Below, piece by piece: positions 2 to 8,047 of a stretch of 8,047 bases of DNA. The notes beneath the pieces were generated by a model, which saw only the letters and a list, made by a program, of their open reading frames with translations, ran no database searches and had not been told where the DNA came from. The translations under genes and the position numbers were made by a program. The stretch lies in the IMG/VR virus record IMGVR_UViG_2609459846_000016; one strand, given 5' to 3'. Origin of the DNA: a virus. Its lineage: Duplodnaviria; Heunggongvirae; Uroviricota; Caudoviricetes. The stretch's first letter is position 1. Each line of letters begins with the position of its first letter.

Positions 2-214
2 CTGACCAATCAGCTGGTGCAGACGGTAAGGGGGTATATCCGCGAATGCCTGCAATGGATGATTGATGACGGTGTGGTGTCCCGTATTGATCTGGATATC
101 CGCCGCACCGGGATTAATGAACTGGGTAACAGTATCACTCTCTGGCGACGTGACGGACCGGTAATGATTTCTTTTGATAATCTGTGGAGTGCGATAACGC
201 ATGGCGGACAGTGA
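2..214 (+). CDS. Phage baseplate protein, 3' end only (gene continues upstream of the window); probably the gp46/GPW-like wedge subunit that precedes gp47 in Mu-like tail modules
   Basis: Frame is open from the first base of the window to TGA at 212-214; the track shows only the last 65 aa (from an internal GTG at 17). It is co-oriented with the downstream baseplate J-like gene, whose ATG at 201 overlaps it by 14 nt. Identity is inferred from gene order only; I do not recognise motifs in the 70 visible residues. Confidence 0.45.
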   Translation: MTNQLVQTVRGYIRECLQWMIDDGVVSRIDLDIRRTGINELGNSITLWRRDGPVMISFDNLWSAITHGGQ

Positions 215-1283
215 ATTTCAGCGCCCGACGCTGGCAGAAAATATCAGTATGCTCCGTAACGATTTATTCGCCAGGCTGGACGTCAGTGACCCACTCCGGC
301 GCATGGATGAAGACGTGCGGGCAAAGGTGTATGCGGCGGCGCTGCATACGGTTTACGGTTACATCGATTATCTGGCAATGAACATACTGCCTGACCGGTG
401 TGATGAATCCTGGCTGGCGCGACATGCTGCGATGAAACGGTGTCCGCGCAAGGGGGCCACGGCTGCCAGCGGGTATATGCGCTGGGAAGATGTCAGCGAT
501 GACCTGAAGGTGACCGCCGGGAGTGTTATTCAGCGCGATGACCTGGTTCAGTACACAGCAACTGCCGATGCAACCAGCTCCAGTGGTGTCCTGCGCGTGC
601 CGATCGCCTGCTCAACTGCAGGTGCGGTCGGTAATGCTGACGACGGTACGGCATTAATCCTGGTCACGCCGGTGAATGGTCTGCCGTCGTCTGGTGTGGC
701 TGATACCCTGACCGGCGGATTCGATACTGAAGATCTGGAAACGTGGCGCGCCCGCGTCATTGAGCGGTATTACTGGACGCCTCAGGGCGGGGCTGACGGG
801 GATTATGTCGTCTGGGCTAAAGAAGTGCCTGGTATTACGCGCGCATGGACATACCGTCACTGGAGAGGAATAGGAACGGTAGGGGTGATGGTGGCGACAA
901 ACGATCCGGAACATCCGGCTCCGGATGAAAGCGTCATTAATGCAGTCAGAGAGCACATTCTTCCTCTGACACCGGTTGCCGGAAGCGGATTGTATGTATT
1001 CGGTGCCACAGAAAAAGTCATCCCGATGACGATTGCATTATCGAAAGACACACCGCAGATCAGGACTGCAATAAAAGCAGAGCTGAATGCACTGATGTTA
1101 CGGGATGGTGTGCCAGAGGGGCGTATGTATCTGTCCAGAATCAGTGAGGCCATCAGTTTGTCTGCTGGTGAAGTGGCCCACCGGTTAATCGTCCCTTCAT
1201 CGGATATTGACCTGGGGGAGACCGAGCTTCCGGTGCTCGGCGAGATCACCTGGCAGGCTTATGACCCGGCAAGGAGTAAATAA
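201..1283 (+). CDS. Baseplate J / gp47-family baseplate assembly protein
   Basis: 360-aa ORF. The N-terminal region (MADSEFQRPTLAEN...VYGYIDYLAMNILPD...) matches the pattern I recall for Mu gp47 / P2 gpJ-type proteins. Its TAA stop (1281-1283) overlaps the next ATG (1283) as TAATG. GC is roughly 50-55 percent, like the other baseplate genes. Confidence 0.8.
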   Translation: MADSEFQRPTLAENISMLRNDLFARLDVSDPLRRMDEDVRAKVYAAALHTVYGYIDYLAMNILPDRCDESWLARHAAMKRCPRKGATAASGYMRWEDVSDDLKVTAGSVIQRDDLVQYTATADATSSSGVLRVPIACSTAGAVGNADDGTALILVTPVNGLPSSGVADTLTGGFDTEDLETWRARVIERYYWTPQGGADGDYVVWAKEVPGITRAWTYRHWRGIGTVGVMVATNDPEHPAPDESVINAVREHILPLTPVAGSGLYVFGATEKVIPMTIALSKDTPQIRTAIKAELNALMLRDGVPEGRMYLSRISEAISLSAGEVAHRLIVPSSDIDLGETELPVLGEITWQAYDPARSK

Positions 1284-2242
1284 TGGATTCGTTACAGGAT
1301 GATTATAAAAAGCTGCTGTACGGACTGATGCCGCCGGGGCCTGCATGGAGCGATACCGACGGCGTGCTTGATGGTCTGGCACCATCGCTTGTACGTGTTC
1401 ATCAGCGGGCTGATGAACTGATGGCTGAAATCGATCCTGGTCAGTCAACAGAGCTGATTGAACGTTATGAAGAATTGTATGGTTTACCTGACACCTGCTC
1501 TCCTGTTGGAGCCCAGACATTACGCCAGCGTCAGCAACGGCTGGAAGCAAAAGCCAATGTGGCTGGTGGCATAAATGAGCAGTTCTTCCTGGAGCAGCTT
1601 GAGGCGCTGGGATATACCGGCGTGACGATCGAACAGTTCCAGCACCTGGATGCAAGCCCCGATCCGGAATGGGGTGATCGCTGGCGTTATTTCTGGCGTG
1701 TGACGTTGCCGGTGGATGCCGGTGCTCAGTGGCAGACATGTTCGGACACCTGTAACACACCGATCCGGACGTGGGGTGATACGGTTGCGGAATGCGTGAT
1801 TAATAAATTATGTCCGTCGCATACTGTTGTCCTTTTTGCATATCCGGATGAGTCTGGTGAAGTGCAACAAGCCGCCCTGACTATAAACAGCCTCTCCTTT
1901 CAGGCCGGACACAAGACGACTGAGCCATTAGCGATTAATCATACAGGTGTTCATTTTGCGGTTGTTCCGGCACTGACAGGTAAGCCGCTGACAATTAACC
2001 GGATTAACTTTTATGCCGCCCGTCCGATGGCAGAGCCACTGGTACTCAGCAGGGCGCAATTGCACTCAGGTCTGCCGACAACGGACCCCATGACCATGAA
2101 CAGCGCACAGTTGCAGACGGGATACAGGACCCGCTCCCCCGTACCAGTTAACAGTATGCAGTTGCAGACAGCCAGCAGACCCCGTGAACCGTTATTGATT
2201 AATCACCCGGGACTGCATTTTGCTGTGGTCACGTCCGAATGA
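1283..2242 (+). CDS. DUF2313/YmfQ-like phage tail protein (Mu gp48 / P2 gpI position) with a ~125-aa repeat-containing C-terminal extension
   Basis: 319-aa ORF with AAGGAG at 1271-1276, 6 nt before the ATG. N-terminal residues 1 to ~190 (LLYGLMPPGPAW ... ELIERYEELYGLPD ...) resemble YmfQ-type proteins, which I recall as ~190-200 aa. Residues ~195-319 carry internal repeats: EPLAINHTGVHFAVV and EPLLINHPGLHFAVV, and four copies of an xTxNSxQLQ-type unit. The matching DNA-level direct repeats are visible at about 1921-1975 and 2183-2240. Confidence 0.75.
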   Translation: MDSLQDDYKKLLYGLMPPGPAWSDTDGVLDGLAPSLVRVHQRADELMAEIDPGQSTELIERYEELYGLPDTCSPVGAQTLRQRQQRLEAKANVAGGINEQFFLEQLEALGYTGVTIEQFQHLDASPDPEWGDRWRYFWRVTLPVDAGAQWQTCSDTCNTPIRTWGDTVAECVINKLCPSHTVVLFAYPDESGEVQQAALTINSLSFQAGHKTTEPLAINHTGVHFAVVPALTGKPLTINRINFYAARPMAEPLVLSRAQLHSGLPTTDPMTMNSAQLQTGYRTRSPVPVNSMQLQTASRPREPLLINHPGLHFAVVTSE

Positions 2243-2265
2243 CATAAAATAAAAGGAGAGCCGCT

Positions 2266-3315
2266 TTGAATATTATTAAACTCGAAAGTTTTCGACAAAT
2301 TCCGGCGAATGAGGGATTGTGCGAGAACTATTATTCAACAAATATTATTTCAGCACTGAACGAAAACGGTGTCACGCTTATCAATGATATGTCCGGTTCT
2401 GTAACATCCGTCTGTCGTGGCACTCAGGCCGTAAATACTGTAGAAAGAACGGGGCTGATTTTTACGACACCCTCATATGTCACACTGTACAGCACACTTC
2501 CGGACTTAAAAGCCTCAGCTGTACAGCTGGGATTTCGTCTGACATTAAGTGCGGGAAAGAAATATTCATCTTCGCCATCCCACATCAGGATTAATGGCTA
2601 TTCATTTACAACCCCGTATCCTGATGAAGCAGCCAGTTATTACTATGAAATTTTCGCAACGCGAAACGAAAACGGCTATGTCTCAGCCAGTCTGTACTGC
2701 AACCGCTCATTAGTTGGAAATGCATCGTTTTATGTATCAGATGACCGGACTGACAAAATTCAGGTGAGTATTGGTAGTGGTGACAATATTTTTTCATCGG
2801 GTGCATCCGGCACGTTAATGCTGGGTGATATGTACTGTGGAACAGTGACATACGGTAGAAATAATAGTGCAGAACCCGCCCTGCTCGGAAGCATTGAGGT
2901 CAGATACAGCCCGGTAACGGCATTTACCGGTGGAAGCGCCAAAAACTCACTGAATAAAGATATTGTCACGGGGCTGAACACCTCTGACAGCGAGGCCGGA
3001 TATCTGATGCTCTCGCCCTCCCTGAATGCAGCACAGGCCACGTTTGGTGCGGTGGATAACAGCAACAGTGATGTTGTGGCTGTTATGGCCTCGGTCACTT
3101 ACCGCGGTGCTGATGCCCCCAATAACCGCCTGGCCTGGAAAGTGAAAAATGGCAGCCATGCAGGCGCAACGATTACAGAGAATGGCGTACAAAGCGACAC
3201 AAACAGCTGGACGACTGTCTCACAGAGTTTTATGGCCCAGCCAGGCGGAGAAACGCCTTTCACAAAGGGTGAACTGACTTTCACAGCGGAATTGTTTAAT
3301 CAGGCAAGGACATAA
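2266..3315 (+). CDS. Hypothetical protein, 349 aa, Ser/Thr/Asn/Gly/Tyr-rich; probable tail-associated or receptor-binding accessory protein, or a horizontally acquired cargo gene
   Basis: Long ORF starting at TTG 2266 with AGGAG at 2254-2258 (7-nt spacer). It sits 23 nt after the DUF2313 gene and 30 nt before the fibre gene, on the same strand. GC is visibly lower (about 40-45 percent) than the baseplate genes. No hydrophobic N-terminus or transmembrane stretch; composition suggests a beta-rich protein. I recognise no family. Confidence 0.6.
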   Translation: MNIIKLESFRQIPANEGLCENYYSTNIISALNENGVTLINDMSGSVTSVCRGTQAVNTVERTGLIFTTPSYVTLYSTLPDLKASAVQLGFRLTLSAGKKYSSSPSHIRINGYSFTTPYPDEAASYYYEIFATRNENGYVSASLYCNRSLVGNASFYVSDDRTDKIQVSIGSGDNIFSSGASGTLMLGDMYCGTVTYGRNNSAEPALLGSIEVRYSPVTAFTGGSAKNSLNKDIVTGLNTSDSEAGYLMLSPSLNAAQATFGAVDNSNSDVVAVMASVTYRGADAPNNRLAWKVKNGSHAGATITENGVQSDTNSWTTVSQSFMAQPGGETPFTKGELTFTAELFNQART

Positions 3316-3345
3316 TTCTGATATTTCATTCACGGGAGGTTTAAT

Positions 3346-4455
3346 ATGCACAGAATTGACACTCCGACAGCAGTTAAAGATAAATTTGGCCCGGGCAAGA
3401 ACGGATTTACTGACGGGAATATTCGTACAGGGCGTCATGCCACCTGGCTGAACAGTGCCATGTGGGATGCCCTTCAGGAGGAAATCTGTGGTGTCATTGA
3501 GAAGGCCGGGATAGAACTGAATAAAGAGGAACACGACCAGTTATATAAAGCCATATTATTACTGGTGGGCGGTGCAATTAACGAAGAGGCATTGCTGATA
3601 AAAAATAATCTTTCGGATGTCGAAGACAGTGATGAGGCTGTTGAAAACCTCGGATTAAAACCCACGGTGGATAAGGCAAAAAATGCCGTTCAGCGTGATG
3701 GAGACACCATGACCGGGGAGCTGAAAATCAGTGGTGTTAATGCACTGAGGATTTTCAACGAAGCCTTTGGTCTGATTTTTCGTCGTTCGGAAGAGTGTCT
3801 GCACCTCATTCCTACCCGGGAAAATCAGGGCGAGAGTGGTGATATTGGGCCGCTACGCCCCTTTACGCTTAATCTCAGGACCGGTCGCATAACTATGGGA
3901 CACGGTCTGGATGTTACAGAAGATGTATTTGCAGGCCGTTTAGCGATTAACAGCAGTAACGGAACGTGGATTCAGATGCGTGACAACAACGTTATTTTCG
4001 GGAAAAACAGGATAAATACTGATGCTGCTCAGGCGCTTCTGCGTCAGGATCATGCAGACAGAAAGTATTTCCTGGCTGGTCTTGGGAATAAGCAGTTTGG
4101 CATTTACATGATAAATAATAGCCGTACGGATAATGGTACGGACGGTCAGGCGTATATGGATGATGCGGGAAACTGGCGATGCGGGCGTCAGGTTATACCG
4201 TCAGACTACGGAAACTTCGATGCCCGCTACCAGACCAAAACAGGTGGCGTACAGAATTTTCAGTATACCAGTGAGGTGTTTTACAACCCGGGCGGGAACG
4301 AGCACAGCTGGACGTTTCGAGCACCTTCTGGTTGTGTTTTGTCAGGCATTAATGTTCAGGATACTGGCCGTAACTCTGCAGACAATATCGGTGGCGTGTA
4401 TTACAAACAGGCTCAGATTTATATTAATGGTGCATGGCGATCTGTATCAGGTTAA
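3346..4455 (+). CDS. Phage tail fibre protein (Mu S / P2 gpH-like)
   Basis: 369-aa ORF with GGGAGG at 3334-3339 before the ATG. Motifs shared with tail fibres as I recall them: ALLIKNNLSD, ENLGLKPTV...NAVQRDGDTMTGELKI (compare P2 H LGLQETVNRAGNAVQKNGDTLSGGL) and a C-terminal ...IYINGAWRSV. The ENLGL motif at 3641-3667 is the usual constant/variable junction. Confidence 0.85.
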   Translation: MHRIDTPTAVKDKFGPGKNGFTDGNIRTGRHATWLNSAMWDALQEEICGVIEKAGIELNKEEHDQLYKAILLLVGGAINEEALLIKNNLSDVEDSDEAVENLGLKPTVDKAKNAVQRDGDTMTGELKISGVNALRIFNEAFGLIFRRSEECLHLIPTRENQGESGDIGPLRPFTLNLRTGRITMGHGLDVTEDVFAGRLAINSSNGTWIQMRDNNVIFGKNRINTDAAQALLRQDHADRKYFLAGLGNKQFGIYMINNSRTDNGTDGQAYMDDAGNWRCGRQVIPSDYGNFDARYQTKTGGVQNFQYTSEVFYNPGGNEHSWTFRAPSGCVLSGINVQDTGRNSADNIGGVYYKQAQIYINGAWRSVSG

Positions 4456-4469
4456 TTAAGGAGAAAATA

Positions 4470-5000
4470 ATGGAACTCTCAAACATTACGCGTTACTACC
4501 CTGAAGACATGCCTTATGGTGACGGCATTCAGTATTTCCGTAGTGAAGACGGGCAGGATTTTTATGAATCACTGGATAAATTCACGAAGAAATACAAGCT
4601 GTGCACGCATCCTGAAACCGGCGTTATTTATTCCGTGGCGGAAGATGTATCCCGTCTTTATCCCGTTGGTTTTACCATTGTGGAAGTGGATGAACTACCG
4701 GATGGTTTTTGTATAGAGGCGCGCTGGTATTATAAAGACGGTGAAGTACTACCGGTCCCTGTTGATTACAGGCAGCAGGCAGAGTCGGAGCGTGCACGTC
4801 TTACTGCGATTGCTGAACGGGAAATATCCGATAAGAAGACGGATTTACTTTTGGGAATCATCGGTGATGAAGAAAAAGAAAAGCTGACAGTCTGGCGCAT
4901 TTACGCGAAATTGCTGCAGGCGATGGATTTCAGCACCATCACTGATAAAACCTCATATAACGCCATTGAATGGCCCGTCTCTCCGGAAGCCTCTTCCTGA
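4470..5000 (+). CDS. Tail fibre assembly protein (Tfa / Mu U / P2 gpG-like chaperone)
   Basis: 176 aa. ATG at 4470 is preceded by AGGAG at 4459-4463 and lies 14 nt after the fibre stop. The C-terminus (...KLTVWRIYAKLLQAMDFSTITDKTSYNAIEWPVSP) matches the conserved Tfa C-terminus, for example lambda Tfa ...APDIEWPAVP as I recall. The track start at 4434 overlaps the fibre gene and has no RBS, so 4470 is preferred. Confidence 0.85.
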   Translation: MELSNITRYYPEDMPYGDGIQYFRSEDGQDFYESLDKFTKKYKLCTHPETGVIYSVAEDVSRLYPVGFTIVEVDELPDGFCIEARWYYKDGEVLPVPVDYRQQAESERARLTAIAEREISDKKTDLLLGIIGDEEKEKLTVWRIYAKLLQAMDFSTITDKTSYNAIEWPVSPEASS

Positions 5001-5089
5001 TTTAATTTATCGCGAGAAAAATTATGTCTGTAGTGATATCAGGTGCGCTGACAGATGGCGCAGGCGCAGGTCGATCGCAATGACGAGAT

Positions 5090-5360
5090 TTATCGCCGTA
5101 GGAGGGAGATGAAGGAAGAACTGAGCAGTCTGGGGGATTTGAAGTCGATTAGGAATTTTATAGTGGAATAACAGAAGCCGCGGCACGTCGTATGCAAGAA
5201 CGCACCGCGGCAGGCACCAATATTTTTTGTGAAGGTATCTTTTCCCGGAATATCTGCGCCGTTCTGGTTTTTCTGTAATGCGCCAGAAGCCTGATTTACC
5301 GTTTCCTGTAAACCGAGGTTTTTGAGAATTGCCTCCGTGTCGTCTGAACGATATTTTTTC
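5090..5360 (-). pseudogene. Truncated remnant of an alternative tail-fibre segment (S'-like) in inverted orientation
   Basis: Minus-strand translation of about 5212-5360 gives KKYRSDDTEAILKNLGLQETVNQASGALQKNQNGADIPGKDTFTKNIGA, paralogous to the + strand fibre residues SDEAVENLGLKPTVDKAKNAVQRDGDTMTG. The frame then runs into non-fibre-like sequence and stops at 5090. There is no room for the rest of a fibre or a second assembly gene. The track ORF 5090..5467 starts inside the IS terminal repeats, so its first ~40 codons are not fibre-derived. Confidence 0.4.
5303..5328. other. Gin/Hin/Pin/Cin-family DNA-invertase crossover site (gix/hix-like)
   Basis: TTCCTGTAAACCGAGGTTTTTGAGAA is an imperfect palindrome about a central GA. 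It differs at 2 of 26 positions from the Mu gix sequence as I remember it (TTCCTGTAAACCGAGGTTTTGGATAA). On the minus strand it encodes N-L-G-L-Q-E, the fibre junction motif. Confidence 0.6.
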
Positions 5361-5409
5361 CCGCTTTCAGCAACAATCGCGGGCCAGAAAGTATGCAATA
5401 TAGTTATGT

Positions 5410-5542
5410 GCAAAATGGCATCTGAATCGATCGCAGTTTGGCATTCGAATCGATCATGATTTGGCATTCATCTCCGATCACAGTTTGGCATCACAATCGA
5501 TCACGATTTGGCATGCTTCCGATCATTGATTGGCATCCTGCC
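5410..5542. repeat. Left terminal multi-repeat array of the IS (5 tandem ~23-bp units plus a partial sixth)
   Basis: CGATC anchors at 5428, 5451, 5476, 5498 and 5520 (spacing 22-25 bp), each followed by (A/G)TTTGGCAT; a partial unit AAAATGGCATC lies at 5412-5422. Confidence 0.7.
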
Positions 5543-5610
5543 AGTCACTCCGGGAATTAACTCTTTTCACCACAGTCTCCATTGCCGTGTTTAAACCAGT
5601 GGAGACGTCA

Positions 5611-7176
5611 ATGTCCAGAAAGAGAAAATCCAGGAGCACTATGGAAACCTGTTTTAAGATCCTTCAGCTCAAGTTCGACAAGAAGCTGACTAACCGTTGT
5701 ATCGGACTGACGTTACACATCAGCGCCTCAACCGTTTTTGAGGTTCTTGCCCGCTTCAAAGCCTCTTCTCTGTCATGGCCATTACCTGCTGATATATCCC
5801 ATGACACGCTGGAGAAACTCATTTTTCCGCCCAAAGACACCTTTGCATCAGAGCTTGTAATGCCTGACATGTTGTACTTCGATACGGAAATGAGAAAACC
5901 AGGTGTGACGCGGCAACTGTTGTGGATGGAATACAAGGCACAGGCGGGTGACAAAGCGATGGGATACTCGCACTTCTGCCGTTGCTACCGGGAGTGGAAA
6001 AAAACGCGACGTCTCTCCATGCGCCAGGAGCATCGTGCCGGCGAAAAGCTTTTTATCGACTTCTGTGGTCCTACGGTTCCTGTTATTAATCCGGACACCG
6101 GTGAGATACGCCGCGTGGCAATCTTCGTGGCCGTAATGGGGGCGTCCAACTATACCTACGTTGAAGCGTGCGAAGGTCAGGACATGATGTCATGGTTAAA
6201 TGCCCACAGCCGTTGCCTGACCTTCCTGGGCGGCGTACCGAAGCTGCTCATCCCCGATAACCTCAGAAGCGCAGTGAAAAAGGCCGATCGCTATGAGCCT
6301 GTCATCAACGACAGTTATCAGGCACTGGCTGAGCACTATGGCACGGTTATCATCCCGGCCCGACCACGCAAACCTAAAGATAAACCAAAAGCAGAAAACG
6401 GCGTCCTCATCGTCGAACGATGGCTTCTTGCCCGCATCCGTAATGAAACCTTCCACACGCTCAGGGCGCTGAATGCGCGCCTTAGGGAGTTACTGACAGA
6501 CATGAATAACCGGCCAATGAAGGGGTACGGCAATCAAACCCGTGCAGAACGCTTCCGCATACTGGATGCGCCAGCACTCTCTCCGCTGCCTCTGGCACCT
6601 TATGAATACACGGAATACAAAGCTGTGAAGGTTGGCCCTGACTACCACGTTGAATATGCCCGTCACTGGTACTCCGTTCCACACGAACTGGTCGGTCAGC
6701 GTCTGTCACTGAAGGCGGGGCAGTCGGTGGTACAGCTCTGGCACAAGGGGCAGTGTGTGGCGCAACATCCGCGCAGCACACATGAATATAAACACACAAC
6801 CAATCCGCTTCACATGCCAGAGCGCCACCGGCAGCACGGGACATGGACACCGGAACGCCTGATCGAGCAGGGAAAACGTACGGGCCCGTCCACAGGCCGG
6901 GTGGTTGAATCCATGCTGAAGGCAAAACCCCATCCGGAACTGGCTTATCGTGCAGTTCTGGGGCTGCTGGCACTTCAGAAAAAATACGGCCCGGAACGGC
7001 TGGAAAAGGCCTGTTACGTTGCCCTGCACTATAACGCCCCTGACAGACGCTTTATCGACAATCTGCTGCGTCACCATCGGGAGAACCTGGAGCTTCCATT
7101 ATCCCGCCAGGGCGAACAACATCCGGCATATGCTTCAGAGCATGAAAACCTGCGTGGTCCGGGCTACTACCACTGA
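5611..7176 (+). CDS. istA: IS21-family transposase IstA (N-terminal HTH plus DDE integrase core)
   Basis: 521 aa from ATG 5611 (GGAGA at 5601-5605). Motifs typical of IstA: FIDFCGP, FVAVMGASNYTYVE, FLGGVPKLLIPDN, KPKAENGV. The track start at 5530 is a TTG inside the terminal repeats and is rejected. An alternative ATG at 5641 also has an AGGAG 4 nt upstream. Confidence 0.9.
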   Translation: MSRKRKSRSTMETCFKILQLKFDKKLTNRCIGLTLHISASTVFEVLARFKASSLSWPLPADISHDTLEKLIFPPKDTFASELVMPDMLYFDTEMRKPGVTRQLLWMEYKAQAGDKAMGYSHFCRCYREWKKTRRLSMRQEHRAGEKLFIDFCGPTVPVINPDTGEIRRVAIFVAVMGASNYTYVEACEGQDMMSWLNAHSRCLTFLGGVPKLLIPDNLRSAVKKADRYEPVINDSYQALAEHYGTVIIPARPRKPKDKPKAENGVLIVERWLLARIRNETFHTLRALNARLRELLTDMNNRPMKGYGNQTRAERFRILDAPALSPLPLAPYEYTEYKAVKVGPDYHVEYARHWYSVPHELVGQRLSLKAGQSVVQLWHKGQCVAQHPRSTHEYKHTTNPLHMPERHRQHGTWTPERLIEQGKRTGPSTGRVVESMLKAKPHPELAYRAVLGLLALQKKYGPERLEKACYVALHYNAPDRRFIDNLLRHHRENLELPLSRQGEQHPAYASEHENLRGPGYYH

Positions 7177-7192
7177 CAGAAGGAACAACAGT

Positions 7193-7948
7193 ATGAGTGA
7201 TAACCTGTTAAACAAACTGACCCAACTGAAACTCCCGGCGATGGCCGGGAGCCTGATACGGCAGCGGGAAACGCCTCAGACCTACGACGAACTGTCGTTC
7301 GAGGAAAGGCTGACGCTGCTGGTTGATGACGAGCTTCTGAGCAGGGAAAACAGCCGTGTGGCACGGTTGAGAAAAAATGCCGGCCTGAAATACCAGGCAA
7401 CACCGGAAGGGCTGCGCTATCCGGCCTCAAGAGGTCTGCGGGCTGAACAGATGAGAGAACTGCTGAACGGCCACTACATAACCCACAGGAAAAACCTGCT
7501 GATAACCGGTCCGACAGGATGTGGCAAGAGCTGGATAGCCAATGCACTGGGCGAACAGGCATGTCGACAGAAACACAGCGTCCGGTACTGTAGAACCGGG
7601 CGATTACTGGAACAACTGGCTCAGGGACGTGTTGATGGCAGCTGGCTGAAATATCTGAAACAGTTGCAAAAAATACAGGTTCTAATCCTGGACGATCTGG
7701 GGCTGGAACAGTTAAGTAACGCCCAGTGTAATGACCTTCTGGAGCTCATAGAGGATCGTTACGGACAAAGCAGCACGATAGTGGTAAGTCAGTTCCCGGT
7801 AGATAAATGGCATGGTCTGATGGAGAACCCAACAACAGCAGATGCCATCCTGGACAGACTGGTACATAACTCACACCGGGTGGTCCTTCAGGGAGAGTCA
7901 CTGAGGAAAAATCCCCCGGTAGTGGAAAGCAGCGAAAAAACGCGTTAA
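7193..7948 (+). CDS. istB: IS21-family helper ATPase IstB (DnaC-like AAA+)
   Basis: 251 aa from ATG 7193, 16 nt after the istA stop. Walker A GPTGCGKS and Walker B VLILDDLG are present. The track ORF begins at 6950, overlapping istA; 7193 is preferred. Confidence 0.9.
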   Translation: MSDNLLNKLTQLKLPAMAGSLIRQRETPQTYDELSFEERLTLLVDDELLSRENSRVARLRKNAGLKYQATPEGLRYPASRGLRAEQMRELLNGHYITHRKNLLITGPTGCGKSWIANALGEQACRQKHSVRYCRTGRLLEQLAQGRVDGSWLKYLKQLQKIQVLILDDLGLEQLSNAQCNDLLELIEDRYGQSSTIVVSQFPVDKWHGLMENPTTADAILDRLVHNSHRVVLQGESLRKNPPVVESSEKTR

Positions 7949-7974
7949 AAAGCGGTAGAAAAAGTTAAGTTCCC

Positions 7975-8047
7975 GGTTGATCGAATGGATGCGAATCGCT
8001 GATCGGACTTCGATGCCAATCCGTGATCGAATAGAGCGGAATACGCA
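7975..8047. repeat. Right-end terminal repeats of the IS (inverted copies of the left-end unit), truncated by the window edge
   Basis: The reverse complement of 8004-8027 is CGATCACGGATTGGCATCGAAGTC, and of about 7983-8003 is CGATCAGCGATTCGCATCCAT. Both match the left-end unit in inverted orientation. Only two units are visible before the window ends. Confidence 0.6.

Follow-up and report, generated by a model that had tools for sequence, protein, structure and literature searches.

Does the DNA downstream of the tail-fibre assembly gene in this prophage represent the remains of one invertible fibre switch, or fragments of several genes that came to lie side by side? The window considered here is the whole stretch of 8,047 nt analysed from IMG/VR record IMGVR_UViG_2609459846_000016 (Caudoviricetes), and carries the tail end of a Mu/P2-style myovirus prophage. 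An earlier note, made from the sequence alone, described the region as a truncated inverted fibre fragment, left by a deletion within a switch that no longer works. We consider it likely that positions 5001-5408, at the right end of a phiP27-like prophage, form a patchwork of fragments from dead genes, and not one decayed switch.

The tail genes in the left part of the window are:

201-1283: baseplate J gene
1283-2242: gp48/YmfQ-like gene
2266-3315: ORF of 349 aa, phrog_8291 (unknown function), no Pfam match
3346-4455, plus strand: resident tail-fibre gene, 369 aa, phrog_6859 tail fiber (E 1e-170)
4470-5000, plus strand: tfa, the tail-fibre assembly gene, 176 aa, Caudo_TAP (E 1.1e-21), annotated by PGAP as 'tail fiber assembly protein' in ETEC B7A

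The tail module of phiP27, an Stx2e phage at yecE (genes L54-L57), is collinear with this arrangement at 80-91% identity. The shared parts are the baseplate genes, the fibre N-terminus, the 3' end of tfa, the start of L56, the end of L57, a hairpin and an identical pseudo-site within the fibre gene. The first ~180 aa of the resident fibre are L54-like (90.5% by blastn over 3336-3885), while the 250 aa at the C-terminus share 48% identity with Mu Sv, the receptor-binding part. This fibre is thus a mosaic, with a breakpoint near 3885 that lies more than 200 bp past an ENLGL motif. Compared with phiP27, the window has this other fibre C-terminus and an extra 1.48-kb block (1853-3335) between the gp48/YmfQ-like and fibre genes. 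The block lengthens the YmfQ-like ORF by ~120 aa of repetitive, PLxINHxGxHFAVV-type sequence and also contributes the ORF at 2266-3315; in B7A, the YmfQ gene is truncated according to PGAP. In phiP27, L56 and L57 are whole and are followed by L58 and attR, with neither an invertase nor the fibre stub described below.

To the right of tfa, block limits were taken from blastn of 4400-5420 against fetched loci, and the following features were found:

5024-5065, plus strand: start of an L56-like fibre gene, first 14 codons, with the frame continuing to a stop at 5083 (19-codon ORF)
5055-5065: junction A, an 11-bp microhomology (ATGGCGCAGGC) where two blastn segments overlap (one ends at 5065, the other starts at 5055)
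5055-5171, plus strand: end of an L57-like DUF4376 gene, last 38 codons and stop, from blastn to phiP27
5177-5211, plus strand: hairpin 3' of the L57-like gene, with 12-nt arms, conserved in phiP27 (repeat search and alignment)
5206-5215: junction B, a 10-bp microhomology (CGCGGCAGGC) between the L57-type hairpin and S'v coding sequence
5207-5332, minus strand: S'v stub, 42 codons (AILKNLGLQETVNQASGALQKNQNGADIPGKDTFTKNIGACR) from the beginning of a variable fibre domain of the Mu S'/P1 Sv' type
5303-5328: gix/hix-type crossover site, intact 26 bp, TTCCTGTAAACC-GA-GGTTTTTGAGAA
5333-5392, plus strand: invertase upstream region, part of a 203-bp block matching Yersinia phage vB_YpM_39
5393-5408, plus strand: first 5 codons (MQYSY) of a hin-like serine invertase, cut by the insertion sequence (IS) and aligned to vB_YpM_39 hin (MQYGYARVSTFDQ..)
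5409-8047, plus strand: complete IS21-family element, with istA at 5641-7176, istB at 7193-7948 and TG...CA ends

Judged by its sequence, the fibre fragment on the minus strand is real, with a similarity far above chance. It lies within the minus-strand translation of 5207-5410, HITILHTFWPAIVAESGKKYRSDDTEAILKNLGLQETVNQASGALQKNQNGADIPGKDTFTKNIGACR. A 44-aa query (TEAIL...GACR) was compared by tblastn with the six-frame translation of 50,697 phage records (2.3 Gb). The best match was vB_YpM_39 (98% identity, E 2e-21), and matches were also obtained to Mu S' at the annotated G-segment boundary (93%, E 7e-19), to Sv' of P1 and P7 (74%, E 4e-14) and to D108 S'; over Mu, D108, P1, P7 and SJ46 the E-values were 1e-10 to 2e-21. 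Past the site-encoded residues ILKNLGLQE, the stub agrees with Mu S' residues 15-46 at 31 of 32 positions (blastp), so that the similarity extends beyond the site, as expected of a Mu S'/P1 Sv' domain and as the earlier note had proposed. At the DNA level, identity is 94% to Mu over 124 bp and 95.6% to vB_YpM_39 over 203 bp.

The similarity breaks off sharply after ...NIGACR (5207), 32 codons beyond the site, or 41-42 codons when the site-encoded residues are included, which is close to the ~45 fibre-like codons first estimated. About the first 13% of the S'v domain is kept (42 of ~320 codons), and this is all that is left of S'v; U', the second assembly gene, is absent from the minus strand. 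The inverted fragment therefore exists, with an extent of 5207-5332 rather than 5090-5360. Its frame does not degenerate further in, as had been suggested, since 5090-5206 is the antisense of the plus-strand L57-like relic. A 125-aa minus-strand ORF at 5090-5467 was rejected as a fibre gene: it is a chance read-through of three unrelated pieces, starts in the IS and has no Pfam match. Within phage DNA the stub lacks a start codon (the ATG of that ORF is situated in the IS); with neither a start codon nor a promoter of its own, and in the absence of an invertase, it is functionally inert. PGAP labels exactly this stretch 'phage tail protein, missing N-terminus and C-terminus', both in ETEC B7A and elsewhere, so that the sequence is already known in RefSeq as pseudogene fragments.

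In an intact switch, S'v and its assembly gene are carried on the opposite strand, as the earlier note stated and as the layouts of Mu and vB_YpM_39 show. The first 41 S'v codons of the Mu G segment (Gin/gix; S-U, S'-U') are 93% identical to the stub in protein and 94% in DNA, and in the G(+) orientation the S'v end adjoins the invertase gene, as it does in the window. Mu has two sites, an S'v of 958 bp, a U' of 534 bp and an intact gin, whereas in the window S'v is down to 126 bp, U' is absent, and one site and five invertase codons are left. With the 28-bp spacer between U' and U included in the Mu layout, the portion lost in the window amounts to 1413 bp; the vB_YpM_39 counterpart (locus L002, 3589-5000) is 1412 bp, so the loss can be sized at ~1.41 kb against intact S'-U' relatives. 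The invertase of Mu begins MLIGYVRVS.., and differs from the MQYGYARVS.. subtype to which the window remnant belongs.

The nearest relatives of the whole orphan piece are vB_YpM_39 and related E. coli phage-plasmids of ~50 kb, which have the same hin subtype. The switch of vB_YpM_39 is intact, with 83-bp inverted repeats at 2057-2139 and 5035-5117, an S'v of 325 aa, a U' of 176 aa (Caudo_TAP) and an invertase of 184 aa (Resolvase + HTH_7); its tail genes are distant relatives of those in the window. Positions 5206-5408 are 95.6% identical to 5001-5203 of the vB_YpM_39 locus (L002), where hin starts at 5188.

The crossover site at 5303-5328 (TTCCTGTAAACCGAGGTTTTTGAGAA) is of the gix/hix type and lies in the fibre frame at the constant/variable boundary, where it codes for ILKNLGLQE at the head of the S'-type sequence. 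It agrees at 24 of 26 positions with the site at the Mu G-segment boundary (TTCCTGTAAACCGAGGTTTTGGATAA) and equally with that of vB_YpM_39, and is the single good site match within the window; a segment flanked by two inverted 26-bp sites is thus lacking. An intact serine invertase (Resolvase + HTH_7) is likewise absent from the window, tblastn with Hin giving no match and the best match with Gin having an E-value of 9.3. Enzymes of the Gin/Hin type depend on a Fis-dependent recombinational enhancer in the 5' part of the invertase gene, and here that part is cut by the IS after codon 5. With one site and no invertase, inversion is impossible in the window, and the switch is non-functional, as had been concluded before.

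A longer hin remnant is found in B7A, which carries the allele without the IS. It reads MQYSYVMMSTFDQNMELQAEVLRW (24 codons, then a stop) against MQYGYARVSTFDQNLELQLEALRSSG in the intact gene, and TGATGATGTCAACTTTTGACCAGAATATGG belongs to it; homology to hin is gone after ~32-34 codons. This remnant (locus L006, 6494-6595) is 79% identical to vB_YpM_39 in nucleotides and 59% in amino acids, while the adjoining block of S'v, site and upstream region is 95.6% identical in nucleotides, and the divergence jumps near the start codon. The catalytic-region motif YARVS has become YVMMS, and a premature stop is present. The stronger divergence may reflect either a different hin allele or faster decay.

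The IS itself is a complete member of the IS21 family, with istA and istB (Pfam domains rve, Mu-transpos_C_2 and IstB_IS21), TG...CA termini and 23-bp terminal tandem repeats at 5425-5537, the only ones found by a tandem-repeat search. PGAP names the IstB protein 'ISSso4 family'. A copy in E. coli 99-3165 is 99.9% identical over 2643 bp and is flanked by a 6-bp TATATG duplication, from which the limits 5409-8047 were set. Since the last base of the window is the last base of the IS, the target duplication is seen at the 99-3165 copy only. None of 5,426 complete E. coli genomes contained a record spanning the prophage/IS junction (5300-5700), which places the source strain, or its IS insertion, outside those genomes. 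In strain Z0117EC0005 (locus L001, 3549-4810), another IS21-like element, present as ISEc62 fragments, replaces part of the fibre region of the same prophage, an independent case of IS damage to the same fibre module; on comparison, an ISEc62 fragment was unrelated to the IS of the window.

The distance between tfa and the right site is 302 bp (5001-5302), in accordance with the ~300 bp given earlier, and the interval up to the stub is occupied by 205 bp of plus-strand relic of the phiP27 L56-L57 type. Positions 4852-5065 are 90.7% identical (blastn) to phiP27 (locus L003, 3953-4166) and comprise the 3' end of L55 (tfa), the spacer and the start of L56, which in phiP27 encodes a 490-aa fibre protein of the phage_tail_N family (Pfam). 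Positions 5055-5215 are likewise 90.7% identical to the 3' end of L57 and its hairpin (L003, 6044-6204). The 11 bp of ATGGCGCAGGC are found at both phiP27 positions, corresponding to a deletion of 1888 bp relative to phiP27, and the L56 start is joined to the L57 end out of frame. L57 of phiP27 is a DUF4376 protein (Pfam, E 3.7e-18). The 38-aa remnant gave no Pfam match, being too short, and it is identified by its DNA identity to L57 and by comparison with B7A, where PGAP annotates a pseudogene at this place, 'DUF4376 domain-containing protein, missing N-terminus'. In a promoter and terminator scan of 4900-5560 the counts were as in shuffled sequences, and the hairpin at 5177-5211 was not scored as a canonical terminator.

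At junction B, a three-way display of the blastn alignments shows phiP27 homology stopping at 5215 and vB_YpM_39 homology beginning at 5206; the intervening CGCGGCAGGC has one mismatch in phiP27. Junction A also occurs in strain E100341, in a prophage at yecE that is 99.4% identical to the window over 4400-5215. There the fibre gene, tfa and the L56'/'L57 junction are shared, after which the sequence is phiP27-like up to attR at yecE and the stub is absent. The stretch with the junction spans 5125-5317 of the E100341 locus (L004), equivalent to 5024-5215 of the window. Its presence in E100341 without the stub implies that junction A is older than the stub junction, or else was spread by recombination. 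Partial matches suggest that several further strains probably carry it too.

A switch that included the plus-strand fibre gene would have had a second, left site in that gene, as partner of the right one. The candidate is:

3638-3663: left pseudo-site, CTGTTGAAAACCTCGGATTAAAACCC, coding for ..VENLGLKP.., at a position homologous to Mu gixL

Its position corresponds to Mu S residues 146-194 by positional homology. Compared with the reverse complement of the right site, it scores 16 of 26, equal to a random position in the IS; a slightly offset 26-mer scores 17 of 26, a value reached or exceeded in 10 of 200 shuffles. The motif is identical at all 26 positions in phiP27, B7A and E100341. In phiP27 no serine recombinase or invertase is annotated (best tblastn to Hin, E 0.057) and nothing scores above 17 of 26 as a crossover site, while the yecE prophage of E100341 has neither an invertase nor a good site. 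With a chance-level score and an identical copy in the invertase-less phiP27, it was rejected as a decayed partner site, and by these comparisons it is no credible crossover site.

These observations bear on the most serious alternative, in which the resident fibre gene once belonged to a Mu-type switch of the form Sc-[Sv-U-U'-S'v]-invertase, which then suffered an internal deletion and point decay of the left site before the IS killed the invertase. We regard this history as unlikely, although several features agree with it. Gene order and orientation fit the Mu G(+) layout, the fibre resembles Mu S and has both an ENLGL motif where its homology to Mu places gixL and a TC core dinucleotide that matches, and the stub is of the S' type and adjoins an invertase remnant. 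The DNA between tfa and the stub, however, is a plus-strand L56'/'L57 relic with its own hairpin and not decayed U'/S'v. The stub is a relic, but probably not the product of an internal deletion in a switch of the plus-strand fibre gene, from which it is separated by that 205-bp relic. Moreover, left motif and right site disagree at 10 of 26 positions, yet the right site, like the stub, is 94-96% identical to Mu/vB_YpM_39. Such uneven divergence argues against a single switch, in which neutral decay after inactivation should affect both sides equally. The same left motif is found unaltered in the complete phiP27 genome, which has no invertase, and in the E100341 prophage, which ends normally at yecE; among the loci examined, none of the relatives has a fibre gene of the phiP27 L54 type with a consensus left site. 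With the ENLGL motif at the gixL-homologous position, a remote ancestor with a switch, or a later exchange of the left half for a phiP27-type allele, is still a reading of the locus, but a doubtful one.

Under the patchwork reading, the right end would have arisen in three steps. First, a 1.9-kb deletion at the 11-bp microhomology would have fused the L56-like start, out of frame, to the last 38 L57-like codons. Then, beyond the L57 hairpin and at the 10-bp microhomology, the orphan right boundary of a Mu/vB_YpM_39-type invertible segment would have been joined on, bringing 42 minus-strand S'v codons with their gix-like site, the 60-bp invertase upstream region and five invertase codons. Finally, the IS21-family element would have inserted into the invertase remnant. 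The short identities at the breakpoints suggest that both junctions are products of illegitimate recombination mediated by microhomology. In DNA, the right piece has 94-96% identity to Mu/vB_YpM_39, while the fibre gene around the left motif has ~45% protein identity to Mu S, which points to different origins for the two sides. The orphan piece would then come from a different element, whose nearest intact relatives are the ~50-kb phage-plasmids, and would not be the partner of the resident fibre gene. The order of these events is our inference, as a precursor with an intact U'-S'v-hin beside an L57-like gene was not found.

The relic, in its allele without the IS, is present in ETEC B7A and 15 further complete E. 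coli genomes; these 16 cover at least 80% of the 4900-5420 query, and all show 98.6-100% identity over 95-98% of it (about 4900-5410). Thirteen genomes cover at least 80% of positions 6330-6760 of the B7A locus (L006). A search of the 5,426 complete E. coli genomes for a chromosomal precursor, in which an intact U'-S'v-hin would stand in the same context next to an L57-like gene, found none; matches beyond ~100 bp were confined to the 13 genomes with the identical relic and to plasmids of ~50 kb. In B7A, the vB_YpM_39-homologous piece (L006, 6306-6588) is followed, up to potB, by relics resembling lambdoid phage ev243. In these (from about 6646, after a short gap, to 8150), tfa is represented by two fragments and a class I SAM methyltransferase gene is intact, and the fibre-module debris beside potB derives from at least three phage types. 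Four strains (E300082, 100117, 100248 and E200086) carry, besides the chromosomal relic, a plasmid of ~50 kb that encodes a tail fibre and a recombinase of the same hin type. The plasmids of E300082, 100117 and 100248 cover 92-100% of the vB_YpM_39 U'-S'v-hin query, and that of E200086 gives a partial match at 88% identity. The orphan piece may have come from such plasmids, or they may supply an invertase acting in trans.

The latter would matter if the orphan site were still used, with a serine invertase supplied by a phage-plasmid or another prophage pairing it with a distant site, to give chromosomal inversions or a chimeric fibre-derived protein. This seems very improbable. The Gin/Hin family requires two inverted sites in cis and a Fis-bound enhancer, and a second credible site is absent from the window, even though the 26-bp site is intact (24/26 to Mu gix) and several ETEC strains with the relic also harbour one of the ~50-kb plasmids, whose switch is intact and of the same hin type. 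The relic is, furthermore, preserved at 98.6-100% identity in 16 of 16 complete genomes, its orientation relative to flanking genes having been examined in three fetched loci. A precedent for action in trans is PinQ, which is reported to act on the P segment of e14 (PMC12529663). Were the orphan site used, the outcome would be an occasional chromosomal inversion, a plasmid-chromosome fusion, or the resident fibre N-terminus fused to the 42-codon stub. The weakest alternative, that the fibre-like residues are merely site-encoded and no fibre fragment exists, can be practically dismissed: the site does code for ILKNLGLQE and such motifs recur in many fibre genes, but the near-complete agreement with Mu S' past the site and the long DNA matches to Mu and vB_YpM_39 given above speak against it.

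Among known systems, e14, a defective prophage of E. coli K-12, also has a switch region with decayed fibre genes (the stfE pseudogene and the Pin/pix P segment). The likeness to e14 is by description, and the comparison has its limits, as the e14 P segment and the P1 C segment (Cin/cix), a switch of the same kind whose Sv' gave the 74% match to the stub, keep two sites and a working invertase and still invert (e14: PMC12529663). For inversion of the Gin/Hin type, the enzyme must act with an enhancer on two inverted sites present in cis (for Gin, PMC3575834). In place of alternative fibre domains on opposite strands, each with an assembly gene, the window offers a plus-strand Sv-like domain with tfa and, on the minus strand, only the 42 S'v codons. 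As three of the defining features of the Mu G, P1 C and e14 P switches are missing, the stub is a relic of such a switch and not a member of the group.

For the prophage, this means that host range is not switchable by inversion and that the fibre module is fixed in one state; the L56-like and L57-like genes, two more fibre-related genes, are also dead. The stub is ordinary prophage debris, and beyond correct annotation the significance is small. Gene order may suggest a decayed switch where unrelated pieces of fibre modules have in fact been joined into a collage at microhomologies of 10-11 bp, and a conserved ENLGL-coding motif should not be taken for a crossover site without a test of site quality.
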